From Psammoneis japonica (lineage: Eukaryota): a stretch of DNA of 64,000 nt. Location: positions 1-64,000 of the forward strand of contig QPGO01000174.1 in the NCBI GenBank assembly GCA_008632985.1. The letters are read 5' to 3'. The position numbers and the translations under genes are program-made. Below are positions 26,785-59,491 of the stretch, piece by piece (the first letter of the stretch is position 1; every line of letters starts with the position of its first letter). The notes beneath the pieces were generated by a model that saw only the letters and a list, made by a program, of their open reading frames with translations, searched no databases and was not told where the DNA came from.

Positions 26785-26799
26785 ATTGGCTGCTTGGCA

Positions 26800-33800: not shown

Positions 33801-36010
33801 TGGCAAAAATCATCCGTTGTGTTGCAGTTCATTTGTCGCAATGAAAAAACATTGATTGCACAAAAACAATGACATTGCAACACTGACACGAGTCTTGTCA
33901 GTGTTTCAAAACATTTGCATTTGTACAAATCTATGCTTTTGGTGGTGAAAATTCGTTTGCAAGTCAGAGACCGCGTAAAAATTGCGCGAATGTTGTTTTT
34001 GTGCATGTTTTGCTTCACGTGCCACTGGAACACGCCCCCCAGACAATGCCAGCAACTTTGCAATGCTCTGCATCAGGACTTCCTCCACACCCACAAACGT
34101 GCACACAATCCAGACTGTCAGAAACTTCTGGGAGAACTCCAATCACTTGCTGTGGCTGTCCCCAGCTTGCGCGGACTCTTCTCCAAAATTCAACACAATC
34201 TCCGCAACACCAACCCGGACTCCCGAGTCTGCATCACTCCAAACATGCACAGTGCTTTGGATGATTTTCAAGCCATTGAACCAACTCTCAAGAAACGCCC
34301 CATTTGTGTGCAGGAGCCAGTGCACCTGCCACCGACCTTCACCAGCTGCCATGATGCAGCCAGCCATGGAGCAGGCAGCATCATCCTGCCCACCAACACT
34401 GCTGCACCATGCACTTCAATGCTGCACTTCAGCAGCCAAAAGCAACACCAACAGTGCAACGCCAGTCCCATTGCATGGCACATGCCATTCCTGAAAAATG
34501 TCGCCAACCAGCTCTCCACCTGCCGCAACCCACGAGGTCCCATTGCCAACACCAACCCCAAACTCATGGATGGCATCATCCAATCTTGTGGAGCTGCTCA
34601 CTGCTTTGACATTCAAGAATGCACGCACCTGTCTCACACCAACAACTCTGGCACAATGCGTTGGGAATGCAAAGGTTCCACCACTGCAGTCAAGCCAGCC
34701 GCCAAACTCCTCCAGTGCCACGGCTGCCATCAATGCTGTGTCACTGCCGCCTGGGGCTGTGTGTGACTGAAGGCCCAGCCACCTCAACACGGCAGCAGAT
34801 GATGCATCATGACTTCAGTCCCTTGCTGACGGTGAGTTTTTGAACCATTTTAATCTCCATTGCCCACAGAAACTCTCCTGGCACCTTTGGATGCCGCCAC
34901 ACAAGCTGACTTCCTTCATGATCTTGATGCTGCTCAACACGCCGTGGCACATGGCATTGCCACCAGCTGAGCCTCCACCACCAACACTGGCTGGGACAAG
35001 TGGTGAGGGTTCTGTGCCTCTGTGGCCCTCAACCCACTGCTCCAAGATGTCAATGACCCTGTTGTCTTCTTCCTCCAAGTCTTCCTCCACTGCTGCCAAA
35101 CTGGCATCATCGCTCCCCAAGGAAATCCAGTCCAAGGACATGCCACTGAGGATGCCGCACAGTCAATTGGCCAAACGTTCACTGTGATGGGGGCCCTGGA
35201 TCCACGCCACACACACCCCAAGGCGGCATGGATTTCCGTCTTGCCTGCCAAGTCTGTTTCTGCAAGAAAGAGGATCCCCACAGCCCCAGCAGCAGTTCTC
35301 ACTTGGATCATGCATGCTGCCACCAACAGCAATGATCCAGACACCAAAGCCATTGCTGACATGATTGCAGTTGCTTTCTTTTTCTTGTTGCATCCTGGCA
35401 AGTGCACCGTGACACCGTTGGACACCACACCTTTCCAACTGGCAGACATGCGCTTGGCCTCTGACGGTGCCCATTTGGACACCTTCCAAGCCACACATGC
35501 CCAACTTGATGTGCTGCAACCTTTGCCACCCTCACTTTCACTGTGCAGAAAAATTGGGCACCTGGCAAAGTGCTTGGATCAGGCCTTTCAGGACACCCCA
35601 ATTTGTGCCCGACTCAAGCCCTTGTCTGCTGCATCAGACACCTCTGCGCCCATGGCGTGCTCCCTGACACTCCACTGGGCATCCATTTTCAAAACACTGC
35701 CTGGTGTCATGTGTTGCCAGCCGACATCACAAGCATCGTCTGGAACACTGTCATTGCTCTCAGCCCCAAAATCCCCAGGTTTCACTGCTTGAGATGTCAC
35801 CGCTTGGTGCCTTTGGGCCTCTGGTGCCATGGCACTCCTGTGTGCCAGAATCGACACCAATCTCACCTGGCTCTTGGGCTGCTGACAGTCTGATGAAATG
35901 CTGCACTGTCTTCACTTGCAAGCAGAGCCCATCATGCACAACTTTGCCCATGATGTGCTTGCAGGCAGCAACATCGTCCTTCATCCCAATGCCAAAGTCC
36001 CCATGAATCC
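30870..36010 (+). mobile_element. DIRS-type tyrosine-recombinase retrotransposon (gag, RT, RNase H, YR), decayed
   Basis: gag Cys/His tail 'CPPHHCKGQCNTNC'; RT 'GFWVVLP..LSP..IVPQ', 'KVDLANECC', 'LSMG..NSPP.F', 'TCVDNF'; RNase H 'HDAASHGAG', 'KGST'; YR 'AFFFLLHPGKCT' (LRPGEY), 'GAMALL...SDEMLHCLHLQA' (MLRYL). Confidence 0.9.
33470..34036 (+). mobile_element. 567-bp MITE inserted in the DIRS RT/RNase H region
   Basis: TIR ggcgtgttccag / ctggaacacgcc, flanked by 4-bp TSD cccc. Host peptide 'MTLRLTP|RQCQQL' rejoins across it. Confidence 0.85.
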
Positions 36011-36089: not shown

Positions 36090-36920
36090 AAAGTGCTTTG
36101 CACTGTGGTGGCGCTGGTGGAAGGCCCTGCCACTCCAGCTTTGGGTTTGGGAAGGTGGCTTGCACATCCACTGGCAAAGCCACTCCAGTCCATCAGCCTG
36201 GAGGCTCCAGCTGGAGAGTCACAGAAGAAGGAACAAGAAGGGTGGTGTGAGCTGCCCACCTTGCATCGTTCGATGAGGCAAAATGATCCACTTGACCATT
36301 GGTCATTTGCGGCCATTAAAAATTTGAATTTGAGCAGGAGAGAGCAGCTAAGAGCAACAGCCGTCTCAGACAGTTTCATCGCTCCTGCCTCCCCCCCACC
36401 CTCTGGCCCTGTGCTGCTCCAGCTTTGGGTTTGGGAGTGAGGTGCGTGTGCATCCACCAGCAAAGCCACTCCAGTCCATCACCGTTGGCCCAGAGTCTCT
36501 GGCTCCAGCTAGAGAGTCACAGGAGAAGGAATGAGAAGGGTGGTGTGAGCCGCCCACCTCGTGTTGTTCGATGAGGCAAAATGACCCACTTGACCGTTGG
36601 TCATTTGCGGCCATTAAAAATTTGAATTTGAGCATGCTTGCATGAGCAACAAGAGCAAAGGTCATTTTCTCTTGGCTGCTCTCTCCTCTCATTCTTCCAA
36701 AGAGCAACCAAGAGCAACAGCTGTCTCAGACAGTTTCGTCACTCCCACCTCTCCTGCCCTCTGGCCCTGCTGCACCAGCTTTGGGTTTGGGAGTGATGTG
36801 CTTGTGCACCCAGCAGCAAAGCCATTCCAGTCCATCACCATTGGCCCAGAGTCTCTGGCTCCAGCTAGAGAGTCACAGGAGAAGAAACAAGAAGGGTGGC
36901 GTGAGCCGCCGGCACTCGTG
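36090..36920 (+). repeat. Three diverged tandem units (about 280-360 bp) downstream of the DIRS recombinase
   Basis: ccagctttgggtttggga..gcaaagcca..ccagtccatca..ggctccagct(g/a)gagagtcacag..gaagggtgg near 36130, 36415 and 36775. Confidence 0.9.
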
Positions 36921-37214
36921 TTGTCACAGTCCCAGTGCTTAGGGAGTCTATCATACCGCTATCCTCATTGCCCTTCGGTGTCATTGGATTGGCTCCGCCG
37001 TGCCAACAAAGACATTTGACATTTACACTGCAGGGGGATTCTATTTCTTTTCGTTCATTGTTTCAACAGTGTGGTCGATCGTCGGGCGACGTAAAAATAT
37101 TTGGCAGCGCAATAAGCTGCAATCTTTGAGCAGAAGAAACGATTCTTTAAATCACTGCCTAATACAGAATTAACTGTCTGTTTCAGAGTAACAGCTGCCC
37201 CTCACCTCATCGAA

Positions 37215-38291
37215 TCAAAAGTCGATGTTTGTGCTCTTGGCCTTCTTCATCCATGCAGCAACCTTTTCATCGCTTACTACTCCTCTTTTCTGGCCTCCCA
37301 TGCACTGGTCTTTGCGTTCACGTGCATGTTCTTCCGTGCACTTTGCAATCTTAATGACGTTTGCACTAAACTCCATGGAGCAAATACTGTCATCATTAGG
37401 CAGGACGCTCATCTCTTCTCGGCAAAACTCGTGACGATTCATAATGTCAATAAGTTGTTTGAATTTCTCAATCGCATTGTAGCGTGGCGAGGACCCGAGG
37501 CCAACCCCAGGCATTGGGTATGTATAGATATGAGGACGCTTGTCCCAATAGCTCGTTTCGACGTCTTCGACAATGTACAACCCGCCCGGAACGAGACATG
37601 GAAACATGTTGACAAAGCTAAACAATATGTGATGCGGTACGTGACTTCCATCATCAACAATAACATCCCAAGGGCCCTGCTTACAGAGAGTTTCCATGGT
37701 ATTGTGTTTTGATTGATCACCCCAAATAACCCGCAGCTTATCACGATTCTTGGTTACGAAATTGTCCATGTTGACTTTCTCGTCGACTCCCTTTGCCGGA
37801 TCACCATATGCCAAGCCCACGATTAGCTCTGGGTCATCAAAATACTCTGCCCATAAAGCTAAAGAGCGTCCTTTGTCTGCACCAATCTCTAGAAATTTGA
37901 TGCCCTGCTTCGATCGAAAGGGTGCCAACCAGCTTGCGTAGCTCTGCTCATAGTGATGGACAGAATACTTGTCCGTTCCAGTTCGCTTCATAATGTCACC
38001 AATTTTCTCTTTTGAAGAATACCCAGAAGCGCGGTCTGCAGATGGCGTCTCATCCTTGATGGAATTTATCTGTTCCCGTAAAGAGTTTTTCACTTTCTTG
38101 AGTTCTTCTATTTGCTGTTTTAGGTCTTGAATTGCTTCAAGAGACAAAGAGCGACCTTTGCCTCCTCCTGCCATAAACGAATCAATTTCGTGCTGCTGTT
38201 GCCGGAGGTTAGGTAATGAACTTTTTCTAACAACAATCACATTGAGGCAGACGCACACGACAAGAAGTGCGGCAAGAAGTTTCAACATCAT
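37215..38291 (-). CDS. Membrane-anchored class I SAM-dependent (sugar O-)methyltransferase, MycE-like
   Basis: Intact ORF. TM 'LLAALLVVCVCLNVIVV', coiled-coil stem, 'TDK...HHY...Y', 'FLEIG', 'GDQS', 'DVIVDDGSH', 'PGGLYIVEDVETSYW'. Alternative upstream ATG at 38375. Confidence 0.85.
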   Translation of the reverse strand: MMLKLLAALLVVCVCLNVIVVRKSSLPNLRQQQHEIDSFMAGGGKGRSLSLEAIQDLKQQIEELKKVKNSLREQINSIKDETPSADRASGYSSKEKIGDIMKRTGTDKYSVHHYEQSYASWLAPFRSKQGIKFLEIGADKGRSLALWAEYFDDPELIVGLAYGDPAKGVDEKVNMDNFVTKNRDKLRVIWGDQSKHNTMETLCKQGPWDVIVDDGSHVPHHILFSFVNMFPCLVPGGLYIVEDVETSYWDKRPHIYTYPMPGVGLGSSPRYNAIEKFKQLIDIMNRHEFCREEMSVLPNDDSICSMEFSANVIKIAKCTEEHARERKDQCMGGQKRGVVSDEKVAAWMKKAKSTNIDF

Positions 38292-38810
38292 CGTCAGCAG
38301 CGGCTTAATCCTCTTTCTTGCAAACAAAACCAGAGACGCACAATAGGAATCATTCGAAAATGTCGCGTGGGTCATAATTAATATTTTACATAAGGAAAAA
38401 CACAAAATCGTGTAGAAATGTACACAATGTCATACGAGAGAGTGATTAGAGCTAATAACTTTTCGGGAACTGAATTGAAATGCCATCTGATTGACGGCAC
38501 TGGCCTTCACTGTGTGAATCAAAATGCCATCAATCAGATGGCATTTCAATGGAGTGGCGCACTTTCCAAAAGTGCCGTGCGCAGTGCTCGTCTACATGCG
38601 GACAAATGGCGCCAGACTCTGTGCACCGAACACAACAAGATTTCACTCATTACGACAACAGCGCGGGAAGTCCATCACGTTGGGTGCGTCGACGTCGCTG
38701 TGCTTCTTGCGCACAAAAAATGCATCAATCCACTGACGTTGCGCATGCAAATTGGATGGGACACAGGATCTTGCAAATCTGGTGAAAAAATCGTCACCCC
38801 GTGCTTCACC

Positions 38811-39199
38811 GACGGGCTCCAGTCCTGGGTGGGACTTTTTGTGACATTTGCCCCGTAGAGTTCTACGTGCGAGCTCTGCACTTCGTACTCTGGTCAATGG
38901 ATGCACCCATCTTCGACATAAAAAAAATGGCCAAGTTTGCAGTGCATCTATCCCTGTTCACACTCGAAGTTTTGGACAATGCGCCTGCCCTGCGCCATTC
39001 TTAAGACACTCGAGAATGGCGTAGAAGAAAAAAATGTAAAAAGTTGTTCAATGGATGGCCTGACAAATGCACCATAAAATCACACAAAATTTCGCCAAAA
39101 TCACGTAGAAATGTACGTGCGCGACATACGACGCGATTCAAAAAACTGTCGATGTCACAGTTCAGCAGTGCGAGGTCCCACCTAGACCTGGAACGCGTC
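38811..39199 (+). mobile_element. MITE copy A (389 bp), partly spared from TpA loss
   Basis: TIR gacgggctccagtcctgggtgggac / gtcccacctagacctggaacgcgtc; TSD cacc on both sides. Confidence 0.85.
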
Positions 39200-39669
39200 C
39201 ACCGTGTTAAAAACCCCATGACAATCCTCCACAATGAATGGAAATCCAACTTTTTGTCAAAATCTGTTGTCGCGTGCTCACTTCAGTGCTTTGTCAATGC
39301 AGTCGACCGAGAAAACACTAAATGCACCCCAAAAAAAGTGAAAAACAACAGCCCCACTGCGGCCAAAACCTCTGCGTGATTTCAGCACCAAGTTGAGCGC
39401 GCCAAAAACCCTTCATCGCCAATGGCTCAACCAGCTCCCAAAACAACTTGATCATTGTCATTTGACATTGATGTCTCATTTCTTGTCATGTCAGTCCCAG
39501 TCCGCTGTCGTTGTTGTGTGTGTCCATTGCCGATGTGTCGGCGTCGTTGCCGCGATGTTTGTGTGTGAAGTGAACTCAAGTGAACATCTCTGCGAATTTT
39601 GTGGCACATTTTTGCGCGCGCACATTTTGTGCAGATCAGGCATGTGCACCGAATTTTTGAAAGTGTGCC

Positions 39670-40405
39670 ACTCCATTGATTTCCCGAGAAGTTGACATTC
39701 ATGTGCAGAGAGATGGACAGACTGACAACAGTTGTTTTTGGCACTCTCCTGCACAATTTCTACGTGATGACTCTCAGGACCCGAGTGATTCCCATTGCTG
39801 AGACCATCACGCATTGATTGCATGCAGCATGCTGCAATGCTCAGAGTGTGTCCCTGCGCACAGCGAACGACCACAAACGATGATTTGTGCGTGAAGCTCC
39901 CTCTCGTGCTCACCATTGCAGAGAAACGCACGCAGTGCGTGCGCGATGGTCATTGCAAGGGCTTGTGTGCAGTGTGAGTGGTCAGTTCAATGGCAATCTT
40001 TCACGCTGCAGAGTCATTTCTACAGAAATGTGCAGAACAGTGCCAAGACAATTGTCGAAAAGTCTGTCTGTCTGTCCTCAGTGAATTTTCTAACTTTGCA
40101 AAAAATGGACTTGACTGTTTTCTGATCAGGTGCATTTTTCTTCAATGCATTTGCAAAAATGCACCTGACCCGACAACAGTCAAGTCTGTTTTTGCACAAA
40201 TTTTTACATGACAGTTTCAGCACAAAAACGTGTGGATTCCACAGGCATCCACAGCTGTTTTGTGCTTTTTGCGTCGCCGCTCATTTTCGAAAGATTCCTG
40301 TTGCAATGGGAATTGTTTGAAAAAAAATGACCTGTGATGTGAATCGCATCAGTTGCTTGTGGACGTCCACAGAATCTACACATTTTTGCACCAAAACTCT
40401 GTCAT
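39670..40405. repeat. Cluster of fold-back inverted repeats
   Basis: Diverged IR 39670-39800 / 39975-40110; hairpin 40097-40196 (gacttgactgtt..caggtgcattttt / aaaaatgcacctg..aacagtcaagtc); IR 40208-40255 / 40355-40405. Confidence 0.75.
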
Positions 40406-41514
40406 CTTCTCAAAACTTTTGCAAAAAAGGACATTTTTCATTGGCGCTGGTCCAAACAATTTCTGTGCATTCAAGCCAACCCCAACCGAGTGAAAAAAGA
40501 AAATGAAAAAAGATGAAATGGCTCCAAAAGCTTGAGCTTACCCAGATTTTCACCCTCGACTCTTTTTCAACTCGGCCGAAACAAAAAAAGAGCCCGACTC
40601 TTTTTTCACAAACCTGGGAGCATGAAAAAAGAGAAAAGAGTGATGTGGGCCACAAGCTGTCACACATTTCGCACACGCGTCTTGGTTTGTGTGGGACACC
40701 AGCAAAGCAAGCCAAAGTTTGGCTCATGCGCCACACCGTCAAGTCACCATGGCAGTCTGTGATTGTTTTTGACGACTTCTTTCAATGTCATGACTGCAGA
40801 AGTGATGCCGGTTGACAATTTGAAGCAGGTGTGACATGTCTCTTGAAGGAATTGGTGAAGCATGTAGCAGCTCTTCTGCAACAGACCTTTTGTCTTCAAA
40901 TGATGTTGCCAGTCTTCACGTGCATCACAGAAAGTCAACACACAAGGTCCCTGAAGCAGATCTGTGTGACACAGGAATGACCGTGCTGACCAATTCACTG
41001 CAGATGCGACTCATTCAATGGGGCTGTTCTTGTGTTGTTTGATTTTAGATCAGGGGCTCAAAATGGCCTGAGAAGTGCACAAAAACTTTCCACTTGACAA
41101 CCATTTGAGTCACCCCACAAGCCTGTTGCATTTGCACTGAACAAAAAAAGAAATGGAGCCCACAGACCAAGAAAAAAATGGAGGTTCTGGTGGTGCCATT
41201 CTTGTTGTCACAAGGTGGAACTTCGATGCCGTCATGGGCCGTCATCTTCATTGTCATGTGAGGCCTCTTGCTTTGCATGCCCAAGACACCCAGACATTTG
41301 GCTTTTTAATTTTCGCGCCGGTCAGGTCACCAAAACGACAAAACGAAAAAAAGAGTTGAGATTGGCTCTTTTTCATTTGCTCAGCTGGGGTTGGCCTCAT
41401 CAAACAATGACTCTGCAGCACGAAAGATTGCTGCTGCATTTTTTTTTCAGCTCAAATTTGGCCAGAAAAGCTCATGATTTTCTGCTGAAAAAATTTTTGC
41501 CACACTTGCAACAC

Positions 41515-41910
41515 GACACGTTCCAGGCCTGGGTGGGAGCTCGAAGCACTGACGTGTGACACAATTGTTTTTCATCATCCGTCACATGTTTCGCGCGCAC
41601 ATTTCCACGTGTGACATTTCAAAAAATTGTTCCAGACTCGCTGTTTTGCAAAACCCCAGACATTTCATTTGACAAAATTGCAGGAACACAAATGGGCCAG
41701 GTGCATTCTTCAATGTCTGAAGAATGCAACTGGCCAAGCAGAAAATGATGCACTTCAATCACAGACGAGTTTGTGCATTCGCAAAATTGCCTCATTTTCT
41801 GTTGGTGATCATTGACACATTAATCACCTGATGATTTTACTTTGGAGCTCACACGCAGAATTCTGCGGGCCCAATGTTGCACGGATTCCCACCTTCATCT
41901 GGAACGCATC
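41515..41910 (-). mobile_element. MITE copy B (396 bp), inverted relative to A and C
   Basis: Ends gacacgttccaggcctgggtggga / tcccaccttcatctggaacgcatc; TSD acac on both sides. Confidence 0.85.
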
Positions 41911-42349
41911 ACACGGTGACCATGGCTGCTGCTTGTGATGATTCAGGCGAGTGCAGTGGAGGGGTTCCACTGCAAACAATGGGAATCTTTCAAAAATGAC
42001 CCACAATGTGAAACCAACAAATTGCTCAAGGACGTCTGCAGAATCTTCATGTTTTTGCACCAAAGCTGTTGTCTTCTCAAAACTTGTCCAAAAAAATGGA
42101 CTTTGCTGCCAACTGACCCACCCTTTTTTTTTTCAAACGTTCTTTTTTTTTTTGCTGGCAGCAAGCCCAATGTGTGCACATGGACCCAAGTGCAGTTTGC
42201 AACAAGCAATCAATGCTCGTGTGTTGTCAATCAATGCACTGGCAATGACAGAAAAATGCAAATGCTCTGCATGCATCAGAGCATTAAATGCAAAGATCCC
42301 ACACAAAATCACAAACCTTCAAACATGTGTGTTTGACATTTCAAATTTT

Positions 42350-44450
42350 CCATGACATTTCAAATGCAACGACAACGGCAACCGTGAACGCAACACACCC
42401 CATCAATGACCACAAACTCACCTTGACACTGCCATGTGTCGACAGCTTGCAATTCATCTCAAATGAACATGCCTTGCTGTGCTTTGAAAATGACAACCTG
42501 CATTGTCAGAGGTTGAGATTTAGCTCCTCTCCACATCCACAGATGTGGCTTGCAAAAAACCCAGTGTTAAAAGTCGACATTGAACTTTCTAAATTGCAAA
42601 AAGGGTCCCCCAGATTTTGGACGAATGCACGCTCCAAAACAAAATCACACAAACAAAACATTGCTCACATCTGAAATTACTTCATTTGCAACATTTGTGA
42701 TGCAAGCAAGCAAATCTCCACCCATGGAGATTTGCTCAAGACCGGTGGTTGAAGGGTTGGGGTGTGCATCTTGTGTGGTCCAGCTGGCAGGGCTGTGGCC
42801 AGCTTCTGCTGGTGTTTCAAGAAATCTTCCATTCATCCATTGCCAGTGTCTTTGCAAGACAGTTCATTTTCTTTTGTTGGGAGGAACGTGTTGGAAGCAT
42901 TTGTTGACAAACACATGCACAGTTGGTGAACCCAATCAGTGCCACCTCCATTGGTTGCCTTTGACCACAAATGCACCAGAGTCCTGAGGTTTCTGGTCAC
43001 CAAAAATTGGATCACATGAGCCAATGTCACCCACCCAAATTTGCCATCATCTGGGGTGGGTGCTTCTGAAGACACTTCAAGTCCTCCAACAAAAACAAGA
43101 GCATGTCATGGTGTGCCTGTGTGTTGGTGGACAGATCACGTGGTGCCAAGGCATCCTGATGGAGCTGCCAGTTTTGTTGGTGCAAGCAGACGAACCGCCC
43201 TTGTCAGTGCTTGGCATGAAACCCAAATGTTGCACCAGGAGCAAGAGTGTTCACAAGCTTTCATCTTCACAATGAAGATGCAGAACAACCAGGGTTCAAG
43301 TGGATGTCATTGGCACACATCAGCTCCTGTCTGGTCTGTGCACAAGCCCATTGGAAGAAGGAGATCCTTCTCTGGATTGAAATCTTTGGGGAGATTGTTG
43401 CATGTGTTGGAGTGCCATTTGTTTCAAACTGTTTCTCTGAGGTTGCAGTCATCTGCAGGAACAAACTTTTGGAGCTGTTCATGCATCGATTGGTTGACAT
43501 TGAGATTTTGATGTCGTCAAAAAGGGTGCAGGGCAGCAAGCAAGTCCCGGGAAAAACTTGGTGCCCACCAATGATGCATGTGTCTGGCTTTGGCATGCAC
43601 ACCTTTGTGCTGTCTCTTTTCAGCAACTGTTTGTGCCAAAGAGCCTTGCATGCATTGAGCTTTTTTCTTGTGGAGACATTGCAGCAGAGTGAGCAGCAAA
43701 TCGAAAAATCCTTGAGTGGCACTGGAATTTTGTCACACAGTGTGATCAGCTCAAGACAAGCTTCCTCAGCCAATTTGAGGCTGCAACCAAGTGGAAGGGA
43801 TGACTGTTCCTTGCCAACATCATCAGGGGGGTGAGCCAGCAAAAGGTGCTCTTCTTCATCAATGCCGCAACCCTTCGGCAGAGTTGGTGCCGGGAAACAT
43901 CTCCAAAAGACATGACTTGTCCTTGTTGTCTCCATTGGAATGAGATCCATTGGTGCATGCAGTGTCATCATCTTGTTCAACAGAGGCACTGTTCTCAAAA
44001 TCCACATCAGCGGCACTGAACTCTGCATCACATCCTGCCATGGCACCACATGACAAAAGGAAGGAAACAGCAGAAGAGCCAGATTGGCTGGAGGGTGCCA
44101 ATGAGGACTCCTTGTTGCTGTGTTGACAAACAAGCAAAGCAGTTGCTTGGGACAGCGTGCCCAAATCACTGGCAGCAACATCAACACAACCAATTTGGTG
44201 AAGCATGCACTGGCAATGGTGGGAACAAACCATGCCCAACAATTGCAATTTGCAGGGTGGGGATTGCCAAGATTGACCAAATCAAAGAGAGAGTCGCTGG
44301 AAGTGAGTGAACTGATTGATTTTAAAATTGGGTTGTTGTGCAGGCATGAAAGCTGACTGAGAATGCAAATGCCTTGCGGCTGGGCAGACATGAATGTTGG
44401 AATGATGGGAAACAGAATTTGAAAAATCAGCAATTAAAACATTCAGTCAC
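42350..44450 (-). mobile_element. Second, more decayed Plavaka-like transposase remnant
   Basis: 'LELITLCDKIPVPL', a 'W..GFMP'-like segment near 43220 and 'FFGDQKPQD' near 42990, in the expected order. Confidence 0.4.
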
Positions 44451-46857
44451 AGCCAAATGCAATGTTTTTGAAACTTGGGCAAGTGAATTTGAGTCATGTC
44501 AGTGAACACATGACAACAAATGAAACCAATGGCAATCCATTGTTTGGGGCTTGACATTTGCAAATGCAGGAAATTCTAGATTGCAGTGGCAAATGGCCGG
44601 GTGGCAAGGCACACATGACCGGCGCTGGGAGGAGTGCTGACAAAACAAACACATCAGAAAACAACACCAAGTTGTGGCAACCATGGTGCAGAGACTTGTC
44701 AATCCAGCCGAGTGGAGGGCAAGAGACCATGTCAAAGGAAAGGTGTTTCTCAGTGTTGCACTCATCTTTGATGCAAGGCAGCTGGAGGAAACCTGCATGC
44801 TGTGCAGAAACTGCGCCCCCAGAACAGTGGGCCAACGCTGATGGACGGAATGCCAGCAGACCTGCCAGAAGCAAAGCAAAAAACACACCTGCATTTCCTG
44901 TGGATGAAAATGAAACAAAACAGGTTGCACCAGGATTGACCAGCAATGAAGTGATCCAATGCATGTCAGGCCCAGCAAGATGAATTTCACAGCAAGCACC
45001 ATCACCAAGGATTGCCGCGGACAAAGAGATGACAAACTGATGTTGGGGACATGTTGTTGCTGATGATGCAGTGCTTTGTGCATGCTGCAACAAGAACAAT
45101 TGCATCTTGCCTTTGCCGGAATGATTCCAGGATTGATCGTTGAATCCAACATTGCAGATGGTGCTCTGCAACTGCTTGTTGTGACTGGTTGTGGGAGATG
45201 TTCATTGGAAGAAAAGCCTCTCTGACAACACAAGGTCAGGCACGTCGTGTGCCAAGGCATTCACCCACATGCTCCTGCAGAACAATTTTGCAGCATGGCA
45301 CATGGATCACAAGAGCAACAACAAGGACAGTTGTTTGATGTCAGACTGCAATGTGGAGCTCGACGACCAAGGAAGCCCCACCAGAAGGGAAGACTTGTGT
45401 GAGAAGATGATGCCAGATGCAACCGTTGGATCAAGCTCATTTACCATTTTGGAAAAAGACCTGAAGAGTCAACAGAGCAACGCACAGTGGAGGAAATGTC
45501 AAACAAATTCAAAGAGGCATGGGAGAAGTCCACATTGATTGTTTTGACAGAGGTCACGAGCAAGCTGGAAAGCAACAAGAGCTTGCCTGACAGGGAATGC
45601 AGCGCCAAGAAAAGAAAGTGCTTGAGATGCCTGAAGCACTCCATGGCAGGGAACTCCAGGAATGGAGTGGAAGAAAGTGCACCCAGGACCTGATGCAAGA
45701 TGCCCAGGACTTGCAAAGGATGGTCCCTGAGGGCAAACAAGTTCTTTGAGAAACTGGTGAGGGAAATCAAACAAGACATTGTGAGTGAACAACCAGGTGG
45801 ATGGGAGGATTAGCACAGGAAGTTTGCAGCAGGTTGCAATGAGAAAGTGGAGAAAGACAACAACGGGTCAGGGGACAAGGGTGACCACATGGCAAGCTGC
45901 GCTGAGATGCATGAGCTAGAGTTGATGCCAGTTCAGTGGATTGCAGAGTGAATCTAAATTGAAAAACTGAATTCCAGCTGGCAAGTGAGCCAGAAGGATG
46001 CATCACAAAATGGCCAGTTGGGACACCAACCACCCAATCCCTTGTCAGTCAGTTGTCAACAGCCATCAAATGGAGTGTCATGCCAGAGTTAACTTGTTGC
46101 AATGCAACGAACTTGTTGGTTTGCACATCCTTGATTCAAAACCATGGACATTTGTTGGAGGTGCCAGGTGCTCATTTTTGCACAAATCACACTTGTTTGT
46201 CACAAACAACTGTGGTCAGTGACAAATCTGACTCATTGGGACATGAACACATCGACGTGCTTGCGCTCACACATGTTTTGTCAGACTGAGGTCTGGCCAT
46301 CTGTGATTGTGAGGATTCATTGATTCGCCCCCCTGATGATGCAAGGCATTGCAGCTGAAGGTTGCAATGTTTGGACATTGATTTTTGACAATGCAGCAAT
46401 GACACAAGATTGCATTGTGTGATTGTCCTTGTCAGGCACAGAAACAAAGGGGTGTCAGAGTTGTCCACTGTGCTGAGCACAATCACCAGTTTGAAAGCAA
46501 GCGCGCACACTGACAAGTGCAAAATTCAAAAATCCATCATCTCAAAAAGGAGAAGCAATGCTGTGTTGCATTCACAAATTGAGGTGAACAGTTGAAAGAC
46601 AAAAGCAACAGGCACTCAGACATTTGTTGACATTGACGACTTTTAAAAAACATGGCCAATCGATTGGCCAGGAGCCAATCTCAAATCCCAACCCAAAAAT
46701 GACCAAGGCAGTGCGAAATTCGGTTTGTCACATGTTCATTTGCAAAGCAACCCATGTCATGAAGTCCCAAAGCCTTCGAAAGTCATTGGATGCCATTTCA
46801 TGCACGGCAAAGACCGCTTGCAAATTCGGTCATTTTGAAAGTGGCCAGCCCCAAACC

Positions 46858-47041
46858 TGAGCGGTCTTGACAAGTTGTCCACGAATGCTTTCTAAAAATT
46901 GTGGGAAAAGCTGCAATTAACTGCAGCCACAGTGTTTGGGTTTCTGTTGCAGAATTTCTTCGAGGTGTCAACAATCCCGGTCATTCAAATCTCCCGAATC
47001 TTGCAGCTGCTGATGCAATTGTGACGCAGAAGTTTGCTTCA
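46858..47041 (-). repeat. 3' LTR (184 bp)
   Basis: Direct repeat of 52386-52573. Confidence 0.95.
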
Positions 47042-50000
47042 CTCTTCCCTTCCGCGATTCATGCGAATGCTTTGAATCGCAATCCACTTGATCATGCCGA
47101 AGTCGACACGGCAAAATGCACCAAATGTTGATTCTTTCAAATGCATGAGGCACTCTTTGCATGGTGACATTTCCATTCACATGAACCTGTGTGATGGGAA
47201 AGGGACCAAAAGATCTTTCTTCCAATTTGGTGGGATCGTCTGTTTTGACCAAAATTTGCTGCCCGACACGACAATCGAAAAAGTGTCTTTTGAGATTTTG
47301 CCGACGTGAGTTGTCATCAACCAACACTTGCCAATGATCCTGAACAGCAATTGAATCTGCAATGAGAGGCAAATCGAGGAACATGTCTCTCTGGCAGATG
47401 AGAGCTCCTGGCGAAATTCCCAAAACTCTCAAGGTGGCACATCGTAGACCGTGCATGGTTGCAGCCAATGCGTTGTCAACAATCTGTTGAGCCTCTGTCA
47501 TGTTGTAAGGAGGATGTCCCCTGACTGTGGTTCAAATGATGTTGCCAGCCATTTGATGCATTCTTTTGCAAATGGCGTTGGCTTGAGGATTTCTAGCGGT
47601 GGTTTCCACGTCTTTGATTCTCCAGCTTTTGCCAACAGAATCTGAAATGGCTCACCAATGAATTCACCGCCCTTGTCATGGATGCAGCGGTTTGGCTTTG
47701 GATGTCTTGCCAACCAACAATTGGCAAACTTCATCTGCACATGATCTGAAGTCTTGTTGTCAATGTGAGCCAATTCCACAAGGTTGGAAACAGTGTCAAT
47801 CACTGTCAATGCATCAAACTCATTTTCCTGTTGTTGCACTTGTGCTTTCCAAGGACCAATTGAGTCAATGGCCACTTCATCCCAAGGAACTAAAGGAGCT
47901 TCTCTTGGTGGCAAGCAACCACATCCAACTCCCCAAAGTTTGTTCCTTTGGCATGTGTCGCAATGATGATTTTCGACCAATCGGCGCAACGACAGATGAC
48001 AGCAATGCATGCGAATCGTGCAACAGAGCTTTTGCATGCCACAATGCCCCAAAACTTGATGACACCACCTAACCACAGGCGCCAACAAAGCAGTTGGCAA
48101 AGCAATTTTCCAATCATTTTCTTGAACGTTGTTTTCAGGCCTCCAACAAATTAACGGAACTCCGCCAACGCATCGAGTCGGAAATCGAAGCGGATTCCTC
48201 TGCCGCTCTTGATTCAGCTCACAATCTTCAAACTGAAACCTTTGCATGTCAGGATTGTTCAAGGGGCATTGCATTTCTTTCAGACTTGGACAACTCAAAA
48301 AACAATCCACCAATTCTTGATCTTGAACGGTGCAGAATAGAGTTTTTAATTCCGGGCCCAAATTTTCCTCGAGCGACTCGTCTTCTGGAGCCACAGCAGC
48401 TGGAGGAACCGAAAAATCCACAACAGCGCCTTTCGACTCCACTTTAGAAGAACTCTTCCCTTCCACGGTTTTCTCCATGGGAGGAAATTGTGAAAAGAAA
48501 TCAGCTAGAATGTTCTCTTTGCCTTTAACATGTTCAAACTTTAGCGCAAATTCTTTGAGAAAAAGTCGCCAGCGGAGCACTCGTTGCGCATTGAGCGTCT
48601 TGAAAGCAAAATTCTTGTGATCTGTGTGGACTGTTGTTTCAGCTCCCAACAACATAGAGCGAAATTCTTTGAAACAAAGAACTGCAGCAAGCATTTCTTT
48701 CTCCACAGCAGAACAATTCTTTTGAGCTGCGTTGAGTTTTTGGGACCAACATGCGATCAGCTTGCCATTCTGCATGACAACCGCACCAAGCTGACAGTCG
48801 CTGGCATCTGTGTAAATTTGAAAAGGAAGGTTGTGATCGGGACAAGCAAGTGACACATCACCCACCACAATGGCCTTGATCTCCTCAAAGGCTTTCTGAC
48901 AAGCTGGAGTCCACTCAAAATGTTGTTTTCCAGTCAAATCGGTCAATGGCGCCAAAACGTGAGATCGCCGAGGCCACATGTCACGATGACAAGTGACGGC
49001 TCCAACAAAAGATCTAAGTTGTGCATGGTTCTTGGGAGGAGTGAGCTTGAGCACAGCCTCTGCTTTCTTCTTCCAAGGCTTGACACCTTCTGGAGTCATC
49101 CAATGTCCCAAAAAATCAGTTTCTTGAATGGCCCATTTGCACTTGAGTGGGTTCACTTTCAAACCGTTTTGTTCCAAACATTGCAGTGCGGCACTCAACA
49201 CTGCCAAATGCTCAGACCAAACCATTGAGAAGAGGCCAACATCATCAACAAAACAATCTGCATCAAGCTCATTCATCACTTCTTCAATGACTGCTTGAGC
49301 AACATCTGCTGCTGGCTTCAAACCCATCGCAAGCCGACAATGTTGAAACTTGCCGCGCAAGGAGTGACAACAGTGCACAGTTCTTTGGATTCTTCATCTG
49401 GCTCTAAAGTGTGACAGAACATGGACAGATCCAACTTGGTGAAGCACTTGCACCCTTTTCTCTTCTTGACAATGTCTTGTGTTCTTGGCAAAGGACAGAT
49501 CAGCCTCTTCAGTGCCTTGTTGAGCGCACAAAAATCGGATGCCCACCGCACTCGTTGATCCTTTCTAGGAACAACAAATGAAGGAGATGCCCAACAGGTG
49601 GGACCACATGGCCTCAGCACTTCTGTCTGAACTAAATGCTGAAGTGCTTTCTTGAAAACCTCATCATGAACCTTTGGAACTGAGTGTGGTCGAGCATGAA
49701 CCGGAATCGCATTAGGATCGATTTCCAAATGAACCAATTCATGTGGGTGTTGACCCAATTTTCCGTCGAACACTTTTGGGAACTTTGCTGGCACTTGCTG
49801 CAACTCCAGTTGTTGCTCTCTTGAAAGGTGTGTTTGCCTCTTAGCCACTTCTTCCGGAGACACTGACTCGCACTTGGCGTCCAGAATTTGCACAGCAAAT
49901 GCACAAAACTCGACCACGTCGATTTCTTCTTCTTCGACTTCTGGACCTGCAAGAGCAAAACAAGCATTCTCTGCATTGTCCCAAAAGGCAAGTTCTTTCA

Positions 50001-51866
50001 CAGGTGTGAACTTGTCCAACCACTTGACTGTCCTTGATGAGAAATTTACATCAACACCCGCCTTGGTCAAAAAATCCAATCCAAGAATCACGTCGCAACG
50101 ACACGGTGTTTGAAATGTCAGAGCTTTCTGGAAATCAATGCTTCTTGATCTGTCAAATTCAGGCAGCATCATTGTTTCCAAACCGACTGTTCTGCTGCTT
50201 TTCATTGGCCCTGCAGCTGCATTGCATGCCACTGTTTTCTTGAGCAGGCTTGGAGCAGCTCCACGTGCCAAACATCGCTCGTGAACAAGAGTGGTCATGC
50301 TGCCTGAATCAAATGATGCTCTCAACAAACGAGAAGAGTGAGCTCCATTCATTTGTTTGCATGCAAGCACTGATGCAGGCACCATGTTGGGATTCATGTT
50401 TTTTGTTTTGGGTGCCGGCATGCCAGCATGAAGCAATCCCATCGGCTCTTCTTGATTTTTCACGCCGTCAATTTCATGTGACAAATGTGCATCATGTGAA
50501 GATTTGTGTTCAATTGGTGCATTTGTGTCAACAGCAATGGTGTCGTCAACTTCAAAGCTGACACCAGGACTGGAGCAGCACTCCAAACTGGATCATGATC
50601 CAGGTCCTCTTAGATGTGGACCTTGTCCGACATCCGTTCCTCCTGACATCTCGTCAGGACCTCCTGGCAGACCACAGCCTGCCATGTCAAAATGGCACAC
50701 ATCTGCACCCCATTCTTGTGACTGAGTGTCAGTCGGAGGAGCTCATTGAGCCGGATGAGCATTTGATTCTTCTGAACTGCTCTGCACCTGATTTTGATTC
50801 GCACAAAAATTTTGAGGTGAATTCTGCGGACCGCATCCTCGGCCCACACTGTTTTGGTTGTAACCACGGCCATGTCCACCTTGACCACGTCCAAAACCAT
50901 TGTTGGGAGCACATCCACCATCGCCACGTCCACGTCCAGCGCAGTTGGTGTTCTGAGGACCACAAAATTGGCCTCCATAATTTCCTCAGCCTGGACATGG
51001 GTTTCGACCTCGTCCACGACCTGCATCTCGGCCTGCACTTGGCAAACCTCGGCCACCTCTCTGAAAATGAGGATTTGGACCGCAATTTGGGCTCTTGGGA
51101 TTCTCCCTGCAATTTTGCCACAGATGGGGTGTTGCAGAATCCTTGTGCAACCAACAACAAGAATCGGGACCAAACTTCTTCCCATTCCCGGCAGATTCCG
51201 TGTCTCCAGCCTTGCGCTTCTTGGAATCATCATCAGGCTTGGCAGCACCTTTCTGATCAGCAAATCCTTTCTCGTTGGACACACACTGAATGACATCTTC
51301 CAAAGAATCAGCACTGACATCCTTTCCAGCATGCACACAACTCTGTTTCCATGTCATCAGCATGCCTGTGAATGTGATGTTCTTGATCTGCTGCTCATTG
51401 AGCAAAGGTTCAGCTCCAGGTGGCTTGCCAGCACAACGCGACATTTGAATCATCCTGTCAGCACACTTGCGAGGAGAATCGCCAAAAGGTTTAGAAGAAT
51501 TTTTCAAAAATTCAAACATCGCATCACGCACTTGATGATTGCAACATTGCTGACAAAAGCGTGTGATTTCTGCGTCAAACCTGGCCATGGTCCGATCTGC
51601 TTCTGCGACACCTGAAACCAAATTGCTCCACGTGTCTTGAGCGTTGTCTTCTAACACTTCTTCAAAATGGGTGAATTTTTTCAGGTCCTTCATCACAATC
51701 TCAGTGTTCGGCACAGTTCTCAAAGTGCTCTGCAGTGCAGAGCAAGCACTCGATGCCGCACTTGCCGGTGAACTGAGGGCACATTTTCTGTTTCTTGGCA
51801 CCATCGTCACAGTTCTGTGCGAGTTTCACTTTGTCCAAATCTCCGTGTTTGAAGGTTGGTTTGCAT

Positions 51867-52262
51867 GATGGGTTCCAGTCCCAGGTGGGACTTTTTGTGA
51901 CATTGGGCCCACAGAATTCTGCGTGCGAGCTCCGCAGCAAAATCACCAAGCAACGCACACATGAATGATTGCCAACAGAAAAAGAGGCAATTTTGCTGAC
52001 GCATCTCCTCCTCCACACTTGAAGCACATTCTTTGCAGCATGCCCGGGTGTGTTCTTCAGACATTAAAGAATGTGCCCAGTGCGTTTGTGTTGTCACAAA
52101 CGCAGACAACAGAAAGCCTTTGGCTTCGCAAAACAGGCAGTGTGGAACAAATTTTTGTGACAGAACACGCAGAAATGTGCGCGCGAAACATGTGGCGGAT
52201 GATGACAAACAATTGTGTCACAGTTGAGCAGTGCGAGGTCTCACCCAGAGCTGGAATGCGTC
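51867..52262 (+). mobile_element. MITE copy C (396 bp) nested at the 5' end of the Gypsy gag
   Basis: Ends gatgggttccagtcccaggtgggac / gtctcacccagagctggaatgcgtc; TSD gcat on both sides. Confidence 0.85.
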
Positions 52263-52385
52263 GCATGCAAAGCACCGCGCACGGTGCTCTCAGCAAAGCT
52301 CTCACCAAATGCGACACTGCGTTTGAGGCAAAGGATGCACAACAAAGAAAGGAGAAGGAAAGAACAAGACACAGTGTGATCACAG

Positions 52386-52573
52386 TGAATGGTCTTGACA
52401 AGTTGTCGGTCCACGAGTGCTTTCTAAAAATTGTGAGAAAAGCTGTGATTGACTGCAGCCACAGTGTTTGGGTTTCTGTCGCAGAATTTCTTCGTGGTGT
52501 CAACAATCCCGGTCATTCGAATCTCCCGAATCTTGCAGCTGCTGACGCAATTATGATGCAGAAGTTTTCTTCA
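52386..52573 (-). repeat. 5' LTR (188 bp)
   Basis: Direct repeat of 46858-47041 with a 4-bp indel. Confidence 0.95.
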
Positions 52574-52669: not shown

Positions 52670-54870
52670 GGAGTTGCATGAAATGTCAAAATTTTCATTT
52701 TTCCCTGCAAAAACGCACAGAATGTCAGAGAGACCTGCCTGCACGCGAGTGCCACCACAGTCTGCACGATGCTGCGAAAGTTTGTGCACTTGCCACCAAA
52801 ACGCTGCTCGCACTTTTTGCCAGGGGATGTGCCACAGACACACAACATTCGAAGCATTTGGCTGCAGGACAAATCCTGTGTTTTTGGGGCTCTGTTTGAT
52901 TTGACAAAATGTCGAAATTCCATGGAAGGTTTCTCAACAATTGCCTTTTTTCCCAACTGGTGCTGAGACAAAATGCCCCCAGAAATGCAGGTGGTTGTGT
53001 CTTCACCAGACCCCGCCAAAATTTCTCGTTTGAGAAGACAACCCACTGGATGGAGTGAGAATGTTTGAATGATGTTGCACAGTGCGTGAAAAATGACAAC
53101 CTGCGCTCACTCAATTGGGTTGGCATGGTGACATGAAGCACTGAAATGAACGACAAAACGGTGTGACAATCGATGATGACGACACCTGCCTTCTATCGGT
53201 GCCTGCCTGTGAGCTCATTTTCTGCTGTGTTCAAATTTGCATGTCCATGCACACATCACAAGCAGTTGCTGCTGTGTGAGCACATCACGTTGTCACGGCG
53301 TTTCTGCATGCATGATGACACGCATGGCACCGTGCGACTGCAAGAGACGCCGTTGAGTTCCCTTCTCGATCCCGAACTCCGATTTGAACCAGTCACGACT
53401 GTCTCAACCTCATCGCTTCGTGCGACAGCACAGATTTCAAATTCAAACCCGCCAAATGGCTCCAACCGCCAAAACCAAAAAAGGCCTCTTGGGGGGGGAC
53501 TGGGGCTAGAGACTGTTTTGGATTGTTGTTGTTCAAGATTCCCTTGCATGCCGTTCCAAAAGCGTTCCGAGAACGTTCTCACATGCACTGATTCGCGCCG
53601 AAATCAAACTTTGGAGCCGGTCAATTCGCCAATGAGACATGTGATGCATTGCAATTGGTGCACTGTTGTTGGAACTGTTTGAGTGTGGCACAACAGTGTA
53701 AAAGTTTAACAGATTATGTGGATTTATTGCAAAAAGGTACACCCGTCAAAACAGGTTTCTATTTTCTCTAAGAAAAAGAACGGCTGGCAGAAGTCTCAAC
53801 AATTTTGAGTTACAGTGGCTGTGGGTTGAACCACAAGGGTGTGTTGTAACTGCTGGCATTGTTTGACAATAAACCACATCTGCAACAACCGCCAACAGCT
53901 CCAACACGGAAACACCATTCGACGAAATGGGCATTTCGTCATTCCCGTGTTTCCACCGTTCCGGGACCGCACCAAAAGCGTTCCAAAACCGCACCAAAAG
54001 CGTTCCCGAAGGGAATCTCTCTAAAAGGCCTGACATCAAAACATTGTTTTTAGACGTTGGAAACGAATGAGAACCCTGCCCGACAACACATGGAACCATC
54101 AATCCACCTGCGGCAACAAAAACACTGCTGCATGGCAACAGCGCGGCATCAATCATTTGAGCACAATGTAAAATGACAAATGCGCAACACACGACTGTGC
54201 CACTCACCACGCAAATGCGCCTGCCCAGAGCCACAGTGGATTGTCTTGCAAGGACAGTCATTCAGAGGCAGACAAGATCGGAATGGATTTGGAACCAATG
54301 GGTTCGCGTCACACTTGAGCACTTTGCAGGACATGCAGCAGTGTGCGAGTTGTGGGGCCTTCTTCAAGATGAAGGCAACCTTTCTCATGGGTTCCTGCCC
54401 ACTCACTTGTTGTGTGCCCTTGTTTTCTGAATCTGCATTGTTCTGAAACCATTTTGCCAGGAATCTGTGGTGGAGCACACGAAGACACGATAAGAAAATG
54501 GTTTTGTGTCGGAACAGAGTCAACCGCAAATCTGCACTTGTTGCGCACCATCATTCCAATCTCTTTTTGAAAATCAACGCACTGGCATTGGCTTCACCAT
54601 CTTGTCATCTTAGATTGACTGGCAACACAGGTTTGCGGATGACAATGGCATGCACGGTGATGGTGGACGGCACTGACTTTCGCTTCGCATCAACGAACCA
54701 TCAACGCGTTCGCCGTTCGACCCCATCTAATCTGGTGTCTGGTGTTCGCATGTTCATAGCCCTAAATGCAACGTTTTAGGGGATGTGTAAAATGAATTAT
54801 CGTAACGAAAAAACACGAAAAACCACGAAAAACAGGGAAAAACGAAAATTTCGACATTTCATGCAACTCC
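52670..54870 (+). mobile_element. TIR DNA transposon containing a PIF/Harbinger-ISL2EU-like transposase remnant
   Basis: About 38-bp TIR ggagttgcatgaaatgtc(a/g)aaattttc(a/g)tttttccctg at both ends; 3-bp flank cag on both sides. 54300-54690: 'HFAG...VCELW.LL...PTHLLCALVF' and 'CTVMVDGTDFR'. The remnant could belong to a nested element. Confidence 0.75.
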
Positions 54871-55137
54871 CAGGGGGGAGACACAGACGGATGTTTTTAT
54901 TGCCATATCATACCGTGTGAAATTATTCATACGGTGTATGTACTGTACCGTACGGCACGTAGGGTGTAGGGCCCTATACCAGGTAGCTAGCTATAGGTAA
55001 CGAAGCACGATGGCGGCTTGAAACCAAAACTCTCTTCCTCTTTTACCGATTTACAATACTGTAAAGTACCTCTGGATACATCGTAGGACCCGGCAGGAAA
55101 GTCACTTCATTTGCAGGAGAAAAGAGTAGCTGAAATT

Positions 55138-56476: not shown

Positions 56477-57069
56477 TCACATTGAACAAGTCTTCTCGTT
56501 GTCATAAGTCTTCAGGTGTACGACGTTAAATCTTCCAAAATAAACTTCTTAACGAAAGTGATTGTACCAAGACACTTTGAATAGAAACTCAAAATTGCTG
56601 GAAAACCAGGGTGGCTGGCATTGAATGTTGAAAAATGCACTCAGCCCTGAACAAAAACAATGTGTTGTGAATTGCACATGAAACAGACACTTTGGAAAAA
56701 CACATCAAACAAAATGAGCGAGTTTGTGTGATGCGCTGTTTTGGCGGCAAATTGAAAAAAAGAAAATCCACGCACTTTGCTGCAATCCCAAAAATGGCAT
56801 GAACCATCAAACATGACAGTCATCCATGTTGCCAGTGGCTCCACCACCTGCTGCCACAGCAGCGCCACCCCAGTTGCAGAGCCATGCACACATGCCTGTT
56901 GGCTGTGTGACCATCGTCCACTGGGAGGGTCAACGTGCAGCAGCACACAAGGTGACAAGTTCATTCACAAGCCATTGCATTGCAAAGTGAGAGAAGTGAG
57001 GAGTGAGAGGCATGGAGGGGTGGGACTGATGGCATGGTCAATGCTCTTTGGCAGGCCTGGTTGCATTTA

Positions 57070-57700: not shown

Positions 57701-57958
57701 CATTCTCATGGACAATTCACAGCCACAAAATCACTCATTGCTCCTCTCACTTTTCTCACAAAATCACACTTGTGACACCACTTGCACACCCTCTCTGAAA
57801 AAGACACACCACTCACAACCATGGCTGCAGCCATTGCTTTTAACACCTGTCTTGATGGGACAGTTTTTGCAGCAGGAGCCCAGAGCTGCACTGTCACCCA
57901 AGGCTTTGCTGCCATTGAAGACTTGTGTCAAGTGCCTTCCTCTAAGATTGGCGACATG

Positions 57959-59381: not shown

Positions 59382-59491
59382 TGCAACACACAGCTGCTGA
59401 TGAGAGTCAATGCATCACGGCGATGTGTTGCAGCCTTCAAATGTCACAAAGGGCGTGACAAAAATGACCTTTTGTCTGCATGCACACTGCA
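59382..59491 (+). mobile_element. Solo LTR of the TRIM, opposite orientation
   Basis: Reverse complement of the 110-bp repeat; TSD caag on both sides. Confidence 0.85.

Follow-up and report, generated by a model that had tools for sequence, protein, structure and literature searches.

In repeat-induced point mutation (RIP) of fungi, C is changed to T at CpA, TpA becomes enriched, and fresh insertions are spared up to the following round. A hypermutation confined to TpA has been described for Bigelowiella natans in the main text of a preprint: in mutation-accumulation lines, A>G/T>C changes were found at TpA only, in two integrated viral regions (Mettrop et al. 2026, 10.64898/2026.01.13.699255). 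The same text gives 124 short TpA-depleted clusters in a 95-Mb genome with 6% TpA, reports an over-representation of reverse transcriptase and DDE transposase domains in the TpA-depleted coding sequences, refers to RIP as a C>T process, states that ADAR favours U before the edited A, and proposes a defence by adenine deamination that has an ADAT2-like candidate and is seemingly episodic (10.64898/2026.01.13.699255). A full-text search of the literature returned the TpA signature for B. natans alone, in this preprint; the phenomenon is rare and recently described, and the DNA analysed here is a striking instance of it. The window, that is, the whole stretch of 64,000 nucleotides that was analysed, is taken from Psammoneis japonica (GenBank assembly GCA_008632985.1, contig QPGO01000174.1, positions 1 to 64,000, forward strand). 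It contains three short elements with terminal inverted repeats (TIRs), designated copies A, B, and C, that differ in their content of TA dinucleotides (coordinates of all features are collated in Table 1). The pattern was judged, with a probability of about 70%, to result from TpA-specific transition hypermutation of non-genic, repeat-derived DNA, to which B and C were exposed and to which A, as a late arrival, was not.

Dinucleotide contents were expressed as observed/expected ratios (O/E). Over the whole window, these are 0.15 for TA, 1.65 for CA, 1.70 for TG, and 0.45 for CG. About five sixths of the 64 kb are TA-depleted, to approximately 0.4% TpA: the TA-poor DNA (53,409 bp) has a density of 3.7 TA per kb, as compared with 44.5 TA per kb in the 9,362 bp of five TA-rich blocks. 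The TA-poor DNA holds a Ty3/gypsy long terminal repeat (LTR) retrotransposon, TIR elements, and relics of a GT10 and a GT90 glycosyltransferase gene, and it is repeated, at a likeness of at least 80%, at several times the single-copy depth.

The direction of change was determined from the pol frame of the Ty3/gypsy element by comparison with 40 homologs. At the 14 columns in which Tyr is conserved (Tyr in at least 70% of the homologs), the frame reads Cys seven times, His five times, and Phe and Tyr once each, so that TAY codons became TGY or CAY. Conserved Tyr was lost at 13 of 14 columns, as against 71 losses among 291 other conserved residues, 220 of which are kept (Fisher p=3e-7). The four conserved Tyr columns of the GT90 relic now read Cys (two), Phe (one), and Tyr (one kept). 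The two LTRs of the retrotransposon differ at 14 substituted columns in 184 (four of TA type, five of CpG type, and five other) and by one 4-bp indel. The TA-type differences comprise two TA/TG sites and one CA/TG site, and one TA is shared; four of the eight copies of the four inferred TA sites have changed, as compared with 5 of 18 CpG copies. Because LTRs are identical at insertion, the loss of TA happened in place, and it was faster than CpG decay. The aligned copies B and C furthermore differ as CA versus TG at 17 columns and agree at 49; such double differences imply a TA or CG ancestor that was altered independently in each. The change runs from TA to CA or TG, and far faster than other substitutions. 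The preliminary description of this DNA had taken strings from the three copies as nucleotide-level evidence for TA>CA and TA>TG. The direction stands, by way of pol, the LTR pair, and the B/C discordances, which polarise the change independently; the three copies alone barely polarise it, with a single site (39106) that has three states.

Each of the five TA-rich blocks is about 2 kb long and holds a long intact frame without introns. TA is present in all three codon phases of the five intact frames (13, 18, and 21 in that of the methyltransferase), with 15-24 NTA codons each, and the blocks reach about 30-480 bp past the frames. Whole gene units are exempt, including synonymous positions and flanks. 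Maintenance of TA in genes by selection alone was rejected, since synonymous phases and flanks contain TA just as often. The blocks were also considered as retrogenes, and no poly(A) tract was found at the block ends that were inspected. The GT10 and GT90 relics are TA-depleted, so the process also struck gene copies that are not transposons. Values of CG O/E range from 0.13 to 0.5 in deep TA-poor DNA, as compared with about 0.9-1.0 in the gene blocks. At 38457-39674, TA O/E is below 0.1 at a CG O/E of 0.9-1.0, and over the longer stretch 38457-40000 the values are 0.06-0.09 for TA and 0.7-1.0 for CG. The losses of TA and of CpG are separable, and this stretch and the LTR pair together suggest that TA was lost first and CG later.

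The process acts on both strands. Counts of TG and CA are balanced (p>0.05) in 30 of the 32 2-kb bins, the other two lying below p=0.05, and at pol columns with at least 50% Tyr eight sense-strand A>G changes (giving Cys) were counted beside six T>C changes (giving His). The survival of TA in its sequence context was calculated as the number observed in the TA-poor DNA versus the number expected at the density of the gene blocks. The contexts ATAC (0/319), ATAT (0/194), GTAC (1/177), ATAG (7/297), CTAC (11/285), and ATAA (13/337) are referred to as fast; higher survival was obtained for GTAA (33/285), CTAG (16/86), CTAA (60/222), and TTAA (57/177). The ranking is unchanged against a flat base-composition baseline, and an additive model fits in which the A of each strand is lost fast before a pyrimidine and slowly before a purine. 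TA after a purine or before a pyrimidine was lost first. At polarised sites, the reading TAY>TGY/RTA>RCA is favoured over its mirror image by 13 to 4 (p=0.049), and the compositional gains amount to +19.6 per kb for Y-TG-Y versus +9.5 per kb for R-TG-R, both of which are also fed by CpG decay. The process is tentatively read as A>G at 5'-TAY-3'.

A different chemistry would leave the same record. In double-stranded DNA, A>G on one strand is T>C on the other, and the context rule may be written either way; a modified or damaged thymine at 5'-RTA-3' that pairs with G would give T>C with no adenine deamination. A base of the hydroxymethyluracil type is found in dinoflagellate DNA. The preference for TA followed by a pyrimidine resembles, on the other hand, the U-A-C target of TadA in the anticodon loop. 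No evidence for a modified thymine emerged from this analysis, and the candidate named in the main text of the preprint is an ADAT2-like deaminase (10.64898/2026.01.13.699255). Thymine chemistry was regarded as unlikely.

Table 1. Features of the window, with positions counted from its first letter.
Feature	Position	Strand	Description
Copy A	38811-39199	+	389-bp TIR element; target duplication CACC at 38807-38810 and 39200-39203
Copy B	41515-41910	-	396-bp TIR element; target duplication GTGT, read on the element strand
Copy C	51867-52262	+	396-bp TIR element; target duplication GCAT; within LTR retrotransposon 46858-52573
Ty3/gypsy LTR retrotransposon	46858-52573	-	5-bp duplication AAACC; LTRs 46858-47041 and 52391-52573; pol frame 47498-49393; TA-depleted
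Host element of A ('MITE2')	38551-39674		1124 bp including A; TIR starts GGAGTGGC; 2-bp duplication AT
TA-rich methyltransferase block	36866-38456	-	70 TA, O/E 0.58; CG O/E 0.92; frame 37215-38429, Methyltransf_24
Stretch between methyltransferase block and A	38457-38810		354 bp; 2 TA, O/E 0.09; CG O/E 1.01
Stretch beyond A	39200-39674		475 bp; 2 TA, O/E 0.06
Element Y	33470-34036	+	567-bp relative with the same TIR core; CCCC duplication; 10 TA, O/E 0.20
Element X	26230-26785	-	3 TA; TA-poor; related to Y, with good alignment over the first ~110 nt; far end undefined
TA-rich block	1-1778	-	Frame 310-1527, no Pfam family; block continues beyond the window start
TA-rich block	7475-9362	-	Intact frame 7854-9095; FUT8-like match weak, below the Pfam cut-off
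TA-rich block	28503-30636	+	Intact GT47 exostosin-like frame 28681-30312
TA-rich block	54611-56582	+	Frame 55087-55974, no Pfam family
GT10 fucosyltransferase-like relic	14911-16275	-	TA-depleted; codons 1 Tyr, 19 His, 23 Cys
GT90 glycosyltransferase relic	21005-21841	+	TA-depleted

Copies A, B, and C are MITE-like (MITE, miniature inverted-repeat transposable element), non-coding TIR DNA transposons of about 390 bp that are highly repeated, and MITE is a fair name for them. The preliminary description had presented them as three MITE copies; they are real TIR repeats, and B lies on the minus strand. The strings that it quoted, with their coordinates, were all correct: cgTAgagttcTAcg at 38854, cacgTAgaaatgTAcg at 39102, and ccTAga at 39181 in copy A, caCAgaattcTGcg at 51910 and cacgCAgaaatgTGcg at 52166 in copy C, and cgCAgaattcTGcg at 41854 in copy B. 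A search of the 64-kb window with nhmmer gave E-values of 4e-130, 3e-125, and 3e-106 for the three copies and no fourth copy. When the first 30 nt were compared with the reverse complement of the last 30, 21/30 positions matched for A, 19/30 for B, and 18/30 for C. The target duplication is 4 bp long and perfect in three of three copies; that of the longer element Y is CCCC. The TIR core motif occurs seven times in the window, as compared with 0.21 expected occurrences, and two of the seven belong to the longer relatives Y and X.

An empty site was obtained for A only, from one X2 contig that joins 38806 to 39200 and skips 393 bases (389 plus 4). Five letters at this joint fit either side, and two further records also lack A; these empty-site records represent paralogous copies of the element that hosts A (approximately 88-91% alike) and not the same locus. 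Over the three copies, contig depths add up to 30,638-65,341, as compared with about 61-65 for single-copy contigs, and the sum is highest over A (65,341, versus 30,638 and 40,035); such depths are not copy numbers and were taken only as a sign of a highly repeated family. At 51867, the start of copy C, seventeen loose ends whose flanks differ come together. No Pfam families were found in the frames over A, B, and C, and no transposase domain was found in the 73+13 frames scanned in the window. With MITEs in general, the copies share the length of about 390 bp, the TIRs, a target duplication, the lack of coding capacity, the many copies, and nesting; they are unlike them in that the 4-bp duplication has no fixed sequence (CACC, GCAT, GTGT) and that the window holds no autonomous partner or transposase. 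A 20-base TIR string, searched against metagenomes, gave a single chance match in a bacterial-looking coding region that is unrelated to the element. A 76-nt direct repeat (75%; 40323-40398 and 41992-42067) lies some way off on either side of copy B. In contigs, 42002 is joined back to 40356, and a further repeated element possibly encloses copy B.

Pairwise comparison by blastn aligned C with B over 399 nt (72.7% identity, E 6e-60). Copy A matched C at the ends only (70 nt at 84% and 101 nt at 76%), and the matches of A to B and C taken together were likewise terminal (70 nt at 84% and approximately 100 nt at 74-76%). In the alignment of A with B/C, the termini show 68-78% identity and the middle 45-51%. 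Because its middle can barely be aligned with B and C, copy A belongs to another subfamily and is a relative of these copies rather than their "before" state, as which the preliminary description had taken it.

The numbers of TA are 13 in A (O/E 0.49), 2 in B (O/E 0.07), and 1 in C (O/E 0.04), with CG O/E values of 1.05, 0.79, and 0.70, respectively. Seven of the 13 TA of A (38856, 38864, 39022, 39106, 39114, 39127, and 39183) stand against CA or TG in B as well as in C, and the other six stand opposite different dinucleotides in the poorly aligned middle. As a background, CA or TG occurs in both B and C at 61 of 370 ungapped dinucleotide columns, against which 7/13 has a binomial p=0.002. Three states were found only at 39106 (TA in A, CA in C, TG in B), and at six of the seven sites the product is identical in B and C. 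Copy A keeps 23 CG, just six of which are CG in both B and C. All three of the TA that remain in B (two) and C (one) are in slow contexts. Copies B and C lost nearly all of their TA, largely independently of one another.

The surroundings of copy A were found to be TA-poor, with TA O/E values of 0.09 and 0.06 on its two sides as compared with 0.49 within it (Fisher p=0.0002); A is its own TA-bearing island in TA-poor DNA and not part of the gene block. It lies inside a larger TIR element (38551-39674), of which the 731 bp outside A contain 4 TA (O/E 0.08) at a CG O/E of 1.0. Three X1 contigs skip this host element exactly (38548 to 39675). The host element without A was encountered in contigs and loose ends, with joints 38806>39200 and 38772>39200 and a loose end at 39200. 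Because A is nested in an element that contigs also carry without it, A is the later arrival; most likely it inserted into an already TA-depleted host element and was not shielded by the methyltransferase gene. That copy A is simply younger, a case that the preliminary description had itself raised, is what the nesting shows at this locus. Ten of the 13 TA of A are in fast contexts; the gene blocks have 282 fast and 135 slow TA, and the TA-poor DNA 32 fast and 166 slow. In this respect A resembles the gene blocks and not the TA-poor DNA, so that it was not exposed. Among the places listed for the host element, there are two (38608 and 39232) at which the window shows TG or CA and most paralogs show TA; these suggest that TA may have been lost within this very copy of the host element.

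Element Y behaves in the same manner as A. Its flanks have TA O/E values of 0.03 and 0.0 (Fisher p=0.0001), no gene block stands beside it, and six of its ten TA are in fast contexts. Copies B and C match their own TA-poor surroundings. The TA load in the window tracks the history of each insertion, not its nearness to a gene.

Several points weigh against the explanation of hypermutation with a late, unexposed copy A. Six of the 13 TA of A have no clear counterpart, and its middle is hardly alignable. Of the six products shared by B and C, three are explained by context, and the rest could reflect shared ancestry, in which case the load would be partly inherited. Age and position were separated at two loci (A and Y) of one window, and not as a genome-wide trend. 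The host element of A may have come already TA-poor, and later local protection would then be possible. The reading as A>G at TAY is drawn from 17 polarised sites and from gains to which CpG decay contributes. Finally, the CG O/E of Y (0.60) is below those of B (0.79) and C (0.70), yet Y holds more TA than either. With its decayed CG and its kept TA, Y shows a plain clock to be an oversimplification, and targeting by episode or by family must be taken seriously as an alternative.

In that alternative, recognition would proceed by repeat family or by episode (for example, through small RNAs or homology), and the subfamilies of A and Y would be unrecognised at any age. It is consistent with a middle of A that differs throughout from those of B and C, with the state of Y, and with the summed contig depth at A, the highest of the three, which implies many similar copies. 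In B. natans, too, only some lines and some viral inserts are affected, as given in the main text of the preprint (10.64898/2026.01.13.699255). The window contains no old A-type copy with TA, the nesting makes A the later arrival at its own locus, and TA-poor DNA of unrelated kinds (the LTR element, the gene relics, and other TIR elements) was struck alike. Targeting by family or by episode rather than by age was considered improbable.

Protection by place was the explanation preferred in the preliminary description, according to which position, and not just being repeated, determines the load. Open chromatin near an expressed methyltransferase gene would shield A, and distant copies would lose their TA. 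All five intact frames are indeed in TA-rich blocks, flanks and synonymous sites included; A lies just 382 bp from the end of the methyltransferase open frame; the stretch 38457-40000 keeps its CG (O/E 0.89-1.01), as an unmethylated gene-proximal zone might; and later shelter of an insertion into a host element that came TA-poor would look alike. The part of the claim that concerns position is contradicted by the TA-poor DNA between the gene block and A and beyond A (O/E 0.09 and 0.06), by positions 38608 and 39232, which are mostly TA in paralogs and suggest loss in this copy, and by element Y, which keeps TA with no adjoining gene block. The part that concerns repetition holds, since A is the most repeated of the three copies and is unmutated. 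Shielding of A by its place was rated as quite improbable.

The reverse polarity, in which CA and TG are ancestral and A gained its TA through C>T changes at CpA of the kind seen in fungal RIP, may be upheld for three sequences with no outgroup, in which six of the seven sites fit one change on the branch of A; it was dismissed as highly improbable in view of the three states at 39106, the 17 B/C discordances that require a TA or CG ancestor, the outgroup-polarised Tyr>Cys/His changes that run the opposite way, and a TA level of A that equals, and does not exceed, that of the intact genes. An artefact, with TA miscalled or misassembled in part of the genome, was likewise put aside as barely credible: nothing specific speaks for it, although run X1 is possibly the assembly data of the window itself and then not independent, and against it, the TA-poor stretches recur in the Logan contigs of X1, where 0-4 letters differ per 0.7-1.1 kb, TA-rich and TA-poor DNA alternate within single elements at exact insertion boundaries, and the TA-poor elements also show ordinary decay (CpG loss, the LTR indel, and other substitutions).

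TpA-specific hypermutation of repeat-derived DNA, the preferred explanation, would proceed as follows. TA would become TG on one strand, which is seen as CA on the other. The adenine would be deaminated in DNA by a TadA/ADAT2-like enzyme, by analogy with the proposal for B. natans, and the enzyme would be steered to silent or repeated chromatin. The process would be episodic, with new insertions left intact until the next episode, and copy A would have inserted after the host element had lost its TA, with a short history of its own at the locus. A more far-reaching interpretation is advanced tentatively, as a possibility only: a RIP-like defence in a second protist genome, of opposite chemistry and on a genome-wide scale, by adenine deamination at 5'-TAY-3'. 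It includes a loss of over 90% of TpA in all DNA of repeat or pseudogene origin, the exemption of gene units, a TadA/ADAT2-like enzyme, and episodes.

Bacterial TadA naturally acts on U-A-C in the anticodon loop, and YAC was the preferred motif of early base editors; substrates of eukaryotic ADAT2/3 have various bases after A34. The target A of TadA/ADAT2 follows U or T and resembles the TAY preference inferred here. No TadA/ADAT2-type gene was found in the 64-kb window. The resemblance to fungal RIP consists in transition hypermutation tied to a dinucleotide, by which repeats are ruined and single-copy genes stay intact. Unlike in RIP, TpA is scarce in the repeats and polarised sites show TA changed to CA or TG, which is the opposite direction, and a dependence on duplication is not evident, the most repeated element (A) being unmutated. 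CpG decay with its CpG islands is similar in that one dinucleotide disappears outside genes and persists in islands of gene size, and a depletion of CG is seen here as well; CpG decay cannot remove TA, and the two losses are separable at 38457-39674. With the editing of retroelements by APOBEC or ADAR, the process shares deaminase-driven, clustered transitions that are fixed in genomic copies of mobile elements. Those enzymes act on RNA or on replication intermediates, on one strand, whereas here both strands are affected equally, and DNA transposons and gene relics as well, so that ADAR-type RNA editing does not fit; the following base, furthermore, is preferably a pyrimidine here, unlike in ADAR-type editing. 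The signature of B. natans is the same as that of the window (TpA>TpG/CpA, and clustered TpA depletion with enrichment of CpA and TpG). As far as the main text of the preprint goes, the window differs from B. natans in that about five sixths of its 64 kb are depleted to about 0.4% TpA, with genes as islands, and that text contains no mention of a preference for the 3' neighbour (10.64898/2026.01.13.699255). The targets in the window are an LTR element, TIR elements/DNA transposons, and two glycosyltransferase gene relics.

The extent of depletion suggests that such a process can dominate a genome. It bears on how eukaryotes disable mobile or foreign DNA, on the evolution of base composition, and on the existence of natural DNA adenine deaminases; the neighbour-base preference and the in-place evidence from the LTR pair are added here. 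If the interpretation is true, nested insertions such as A and Y are time stamps, and the order TA, then CpG, then other substitutions is a possible three-speed clock for the dating of mobile elements. Caution is advised when repeat copies are used as "before and after" pairs: a TA-bearing copy was explained here by late arrival, and claims of positional protection therefore need age-controlled, genome-wide tests.

The genes of the window were characterised as follows. The methyltransferase gene is single-copy, with an X1 contig over 36855-38369 at a depth of 61; in that area, X2 contigs cover its frame and the near flanks only. A protein search with the methyltransferase gave no identical protein (best 62%), its homologs are labelled as O-methyltransferase or cephalosporin-hydroxylase types, and, judged from these labels, there is no sign of its being a DNA methyltransferase. 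A search of viral contigs with the same protein returned no locus. Named homologs of the window proteins were from diatoms, Bathycoccus, and Symbiodinium (38-45% identity), and the best unnamed ones reached 53-62%. Among ten homologs examined by cluster, one named member emerged, Symbiodinium pilosum, whose cluster is 41% identical to the query. Membership of the exostosin-like frame in GT47 was confirmed by protein look-up. Rfam and tRNA scans of the window gave nothing. Overlapping direct repeats with a spacing of about 300-360 bp (85-92% alike) lie downstream of the methyltransferase gene at 36203-36910, and a near-perfect 42-nt palindrome (81% complementary, 3-nt loop) lies at 38469-38555, between the methyltransferase block and the host element of A.

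The GT10 and GT90 relics sit between intact glycosyltransferase and methyltransferase genes. A short stretch is common to the 3' end of the GT47 frame (30264-30316), a site 326 bp downstream (30580-30642), and two TA-poor sites (17640-17682 and 21783-21825), one of which is the end of the GT90 relic; this recurring stretch is possibly a C-terminal module that members of a paralogous family have in common. The interval 18001-20000 includes 266 N as an assembly gap. At 53690-53880, a patch with 10 TA (five in fast contexts) is located inside TA-poor DNA and is flanked by short repeats with an 11-nt period; no clear TIR was seen at this patch, which is a possible third young insertion. Approximately 20 TA are concentrated in the 100 bp of 54898-54998, directly upstream of the frame 55087-55974. 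A repeat of 110-120 nt at 57957-59493, in TA-poor DNA, is present in three copies (two direct and one inverted) that are about 90% alike.

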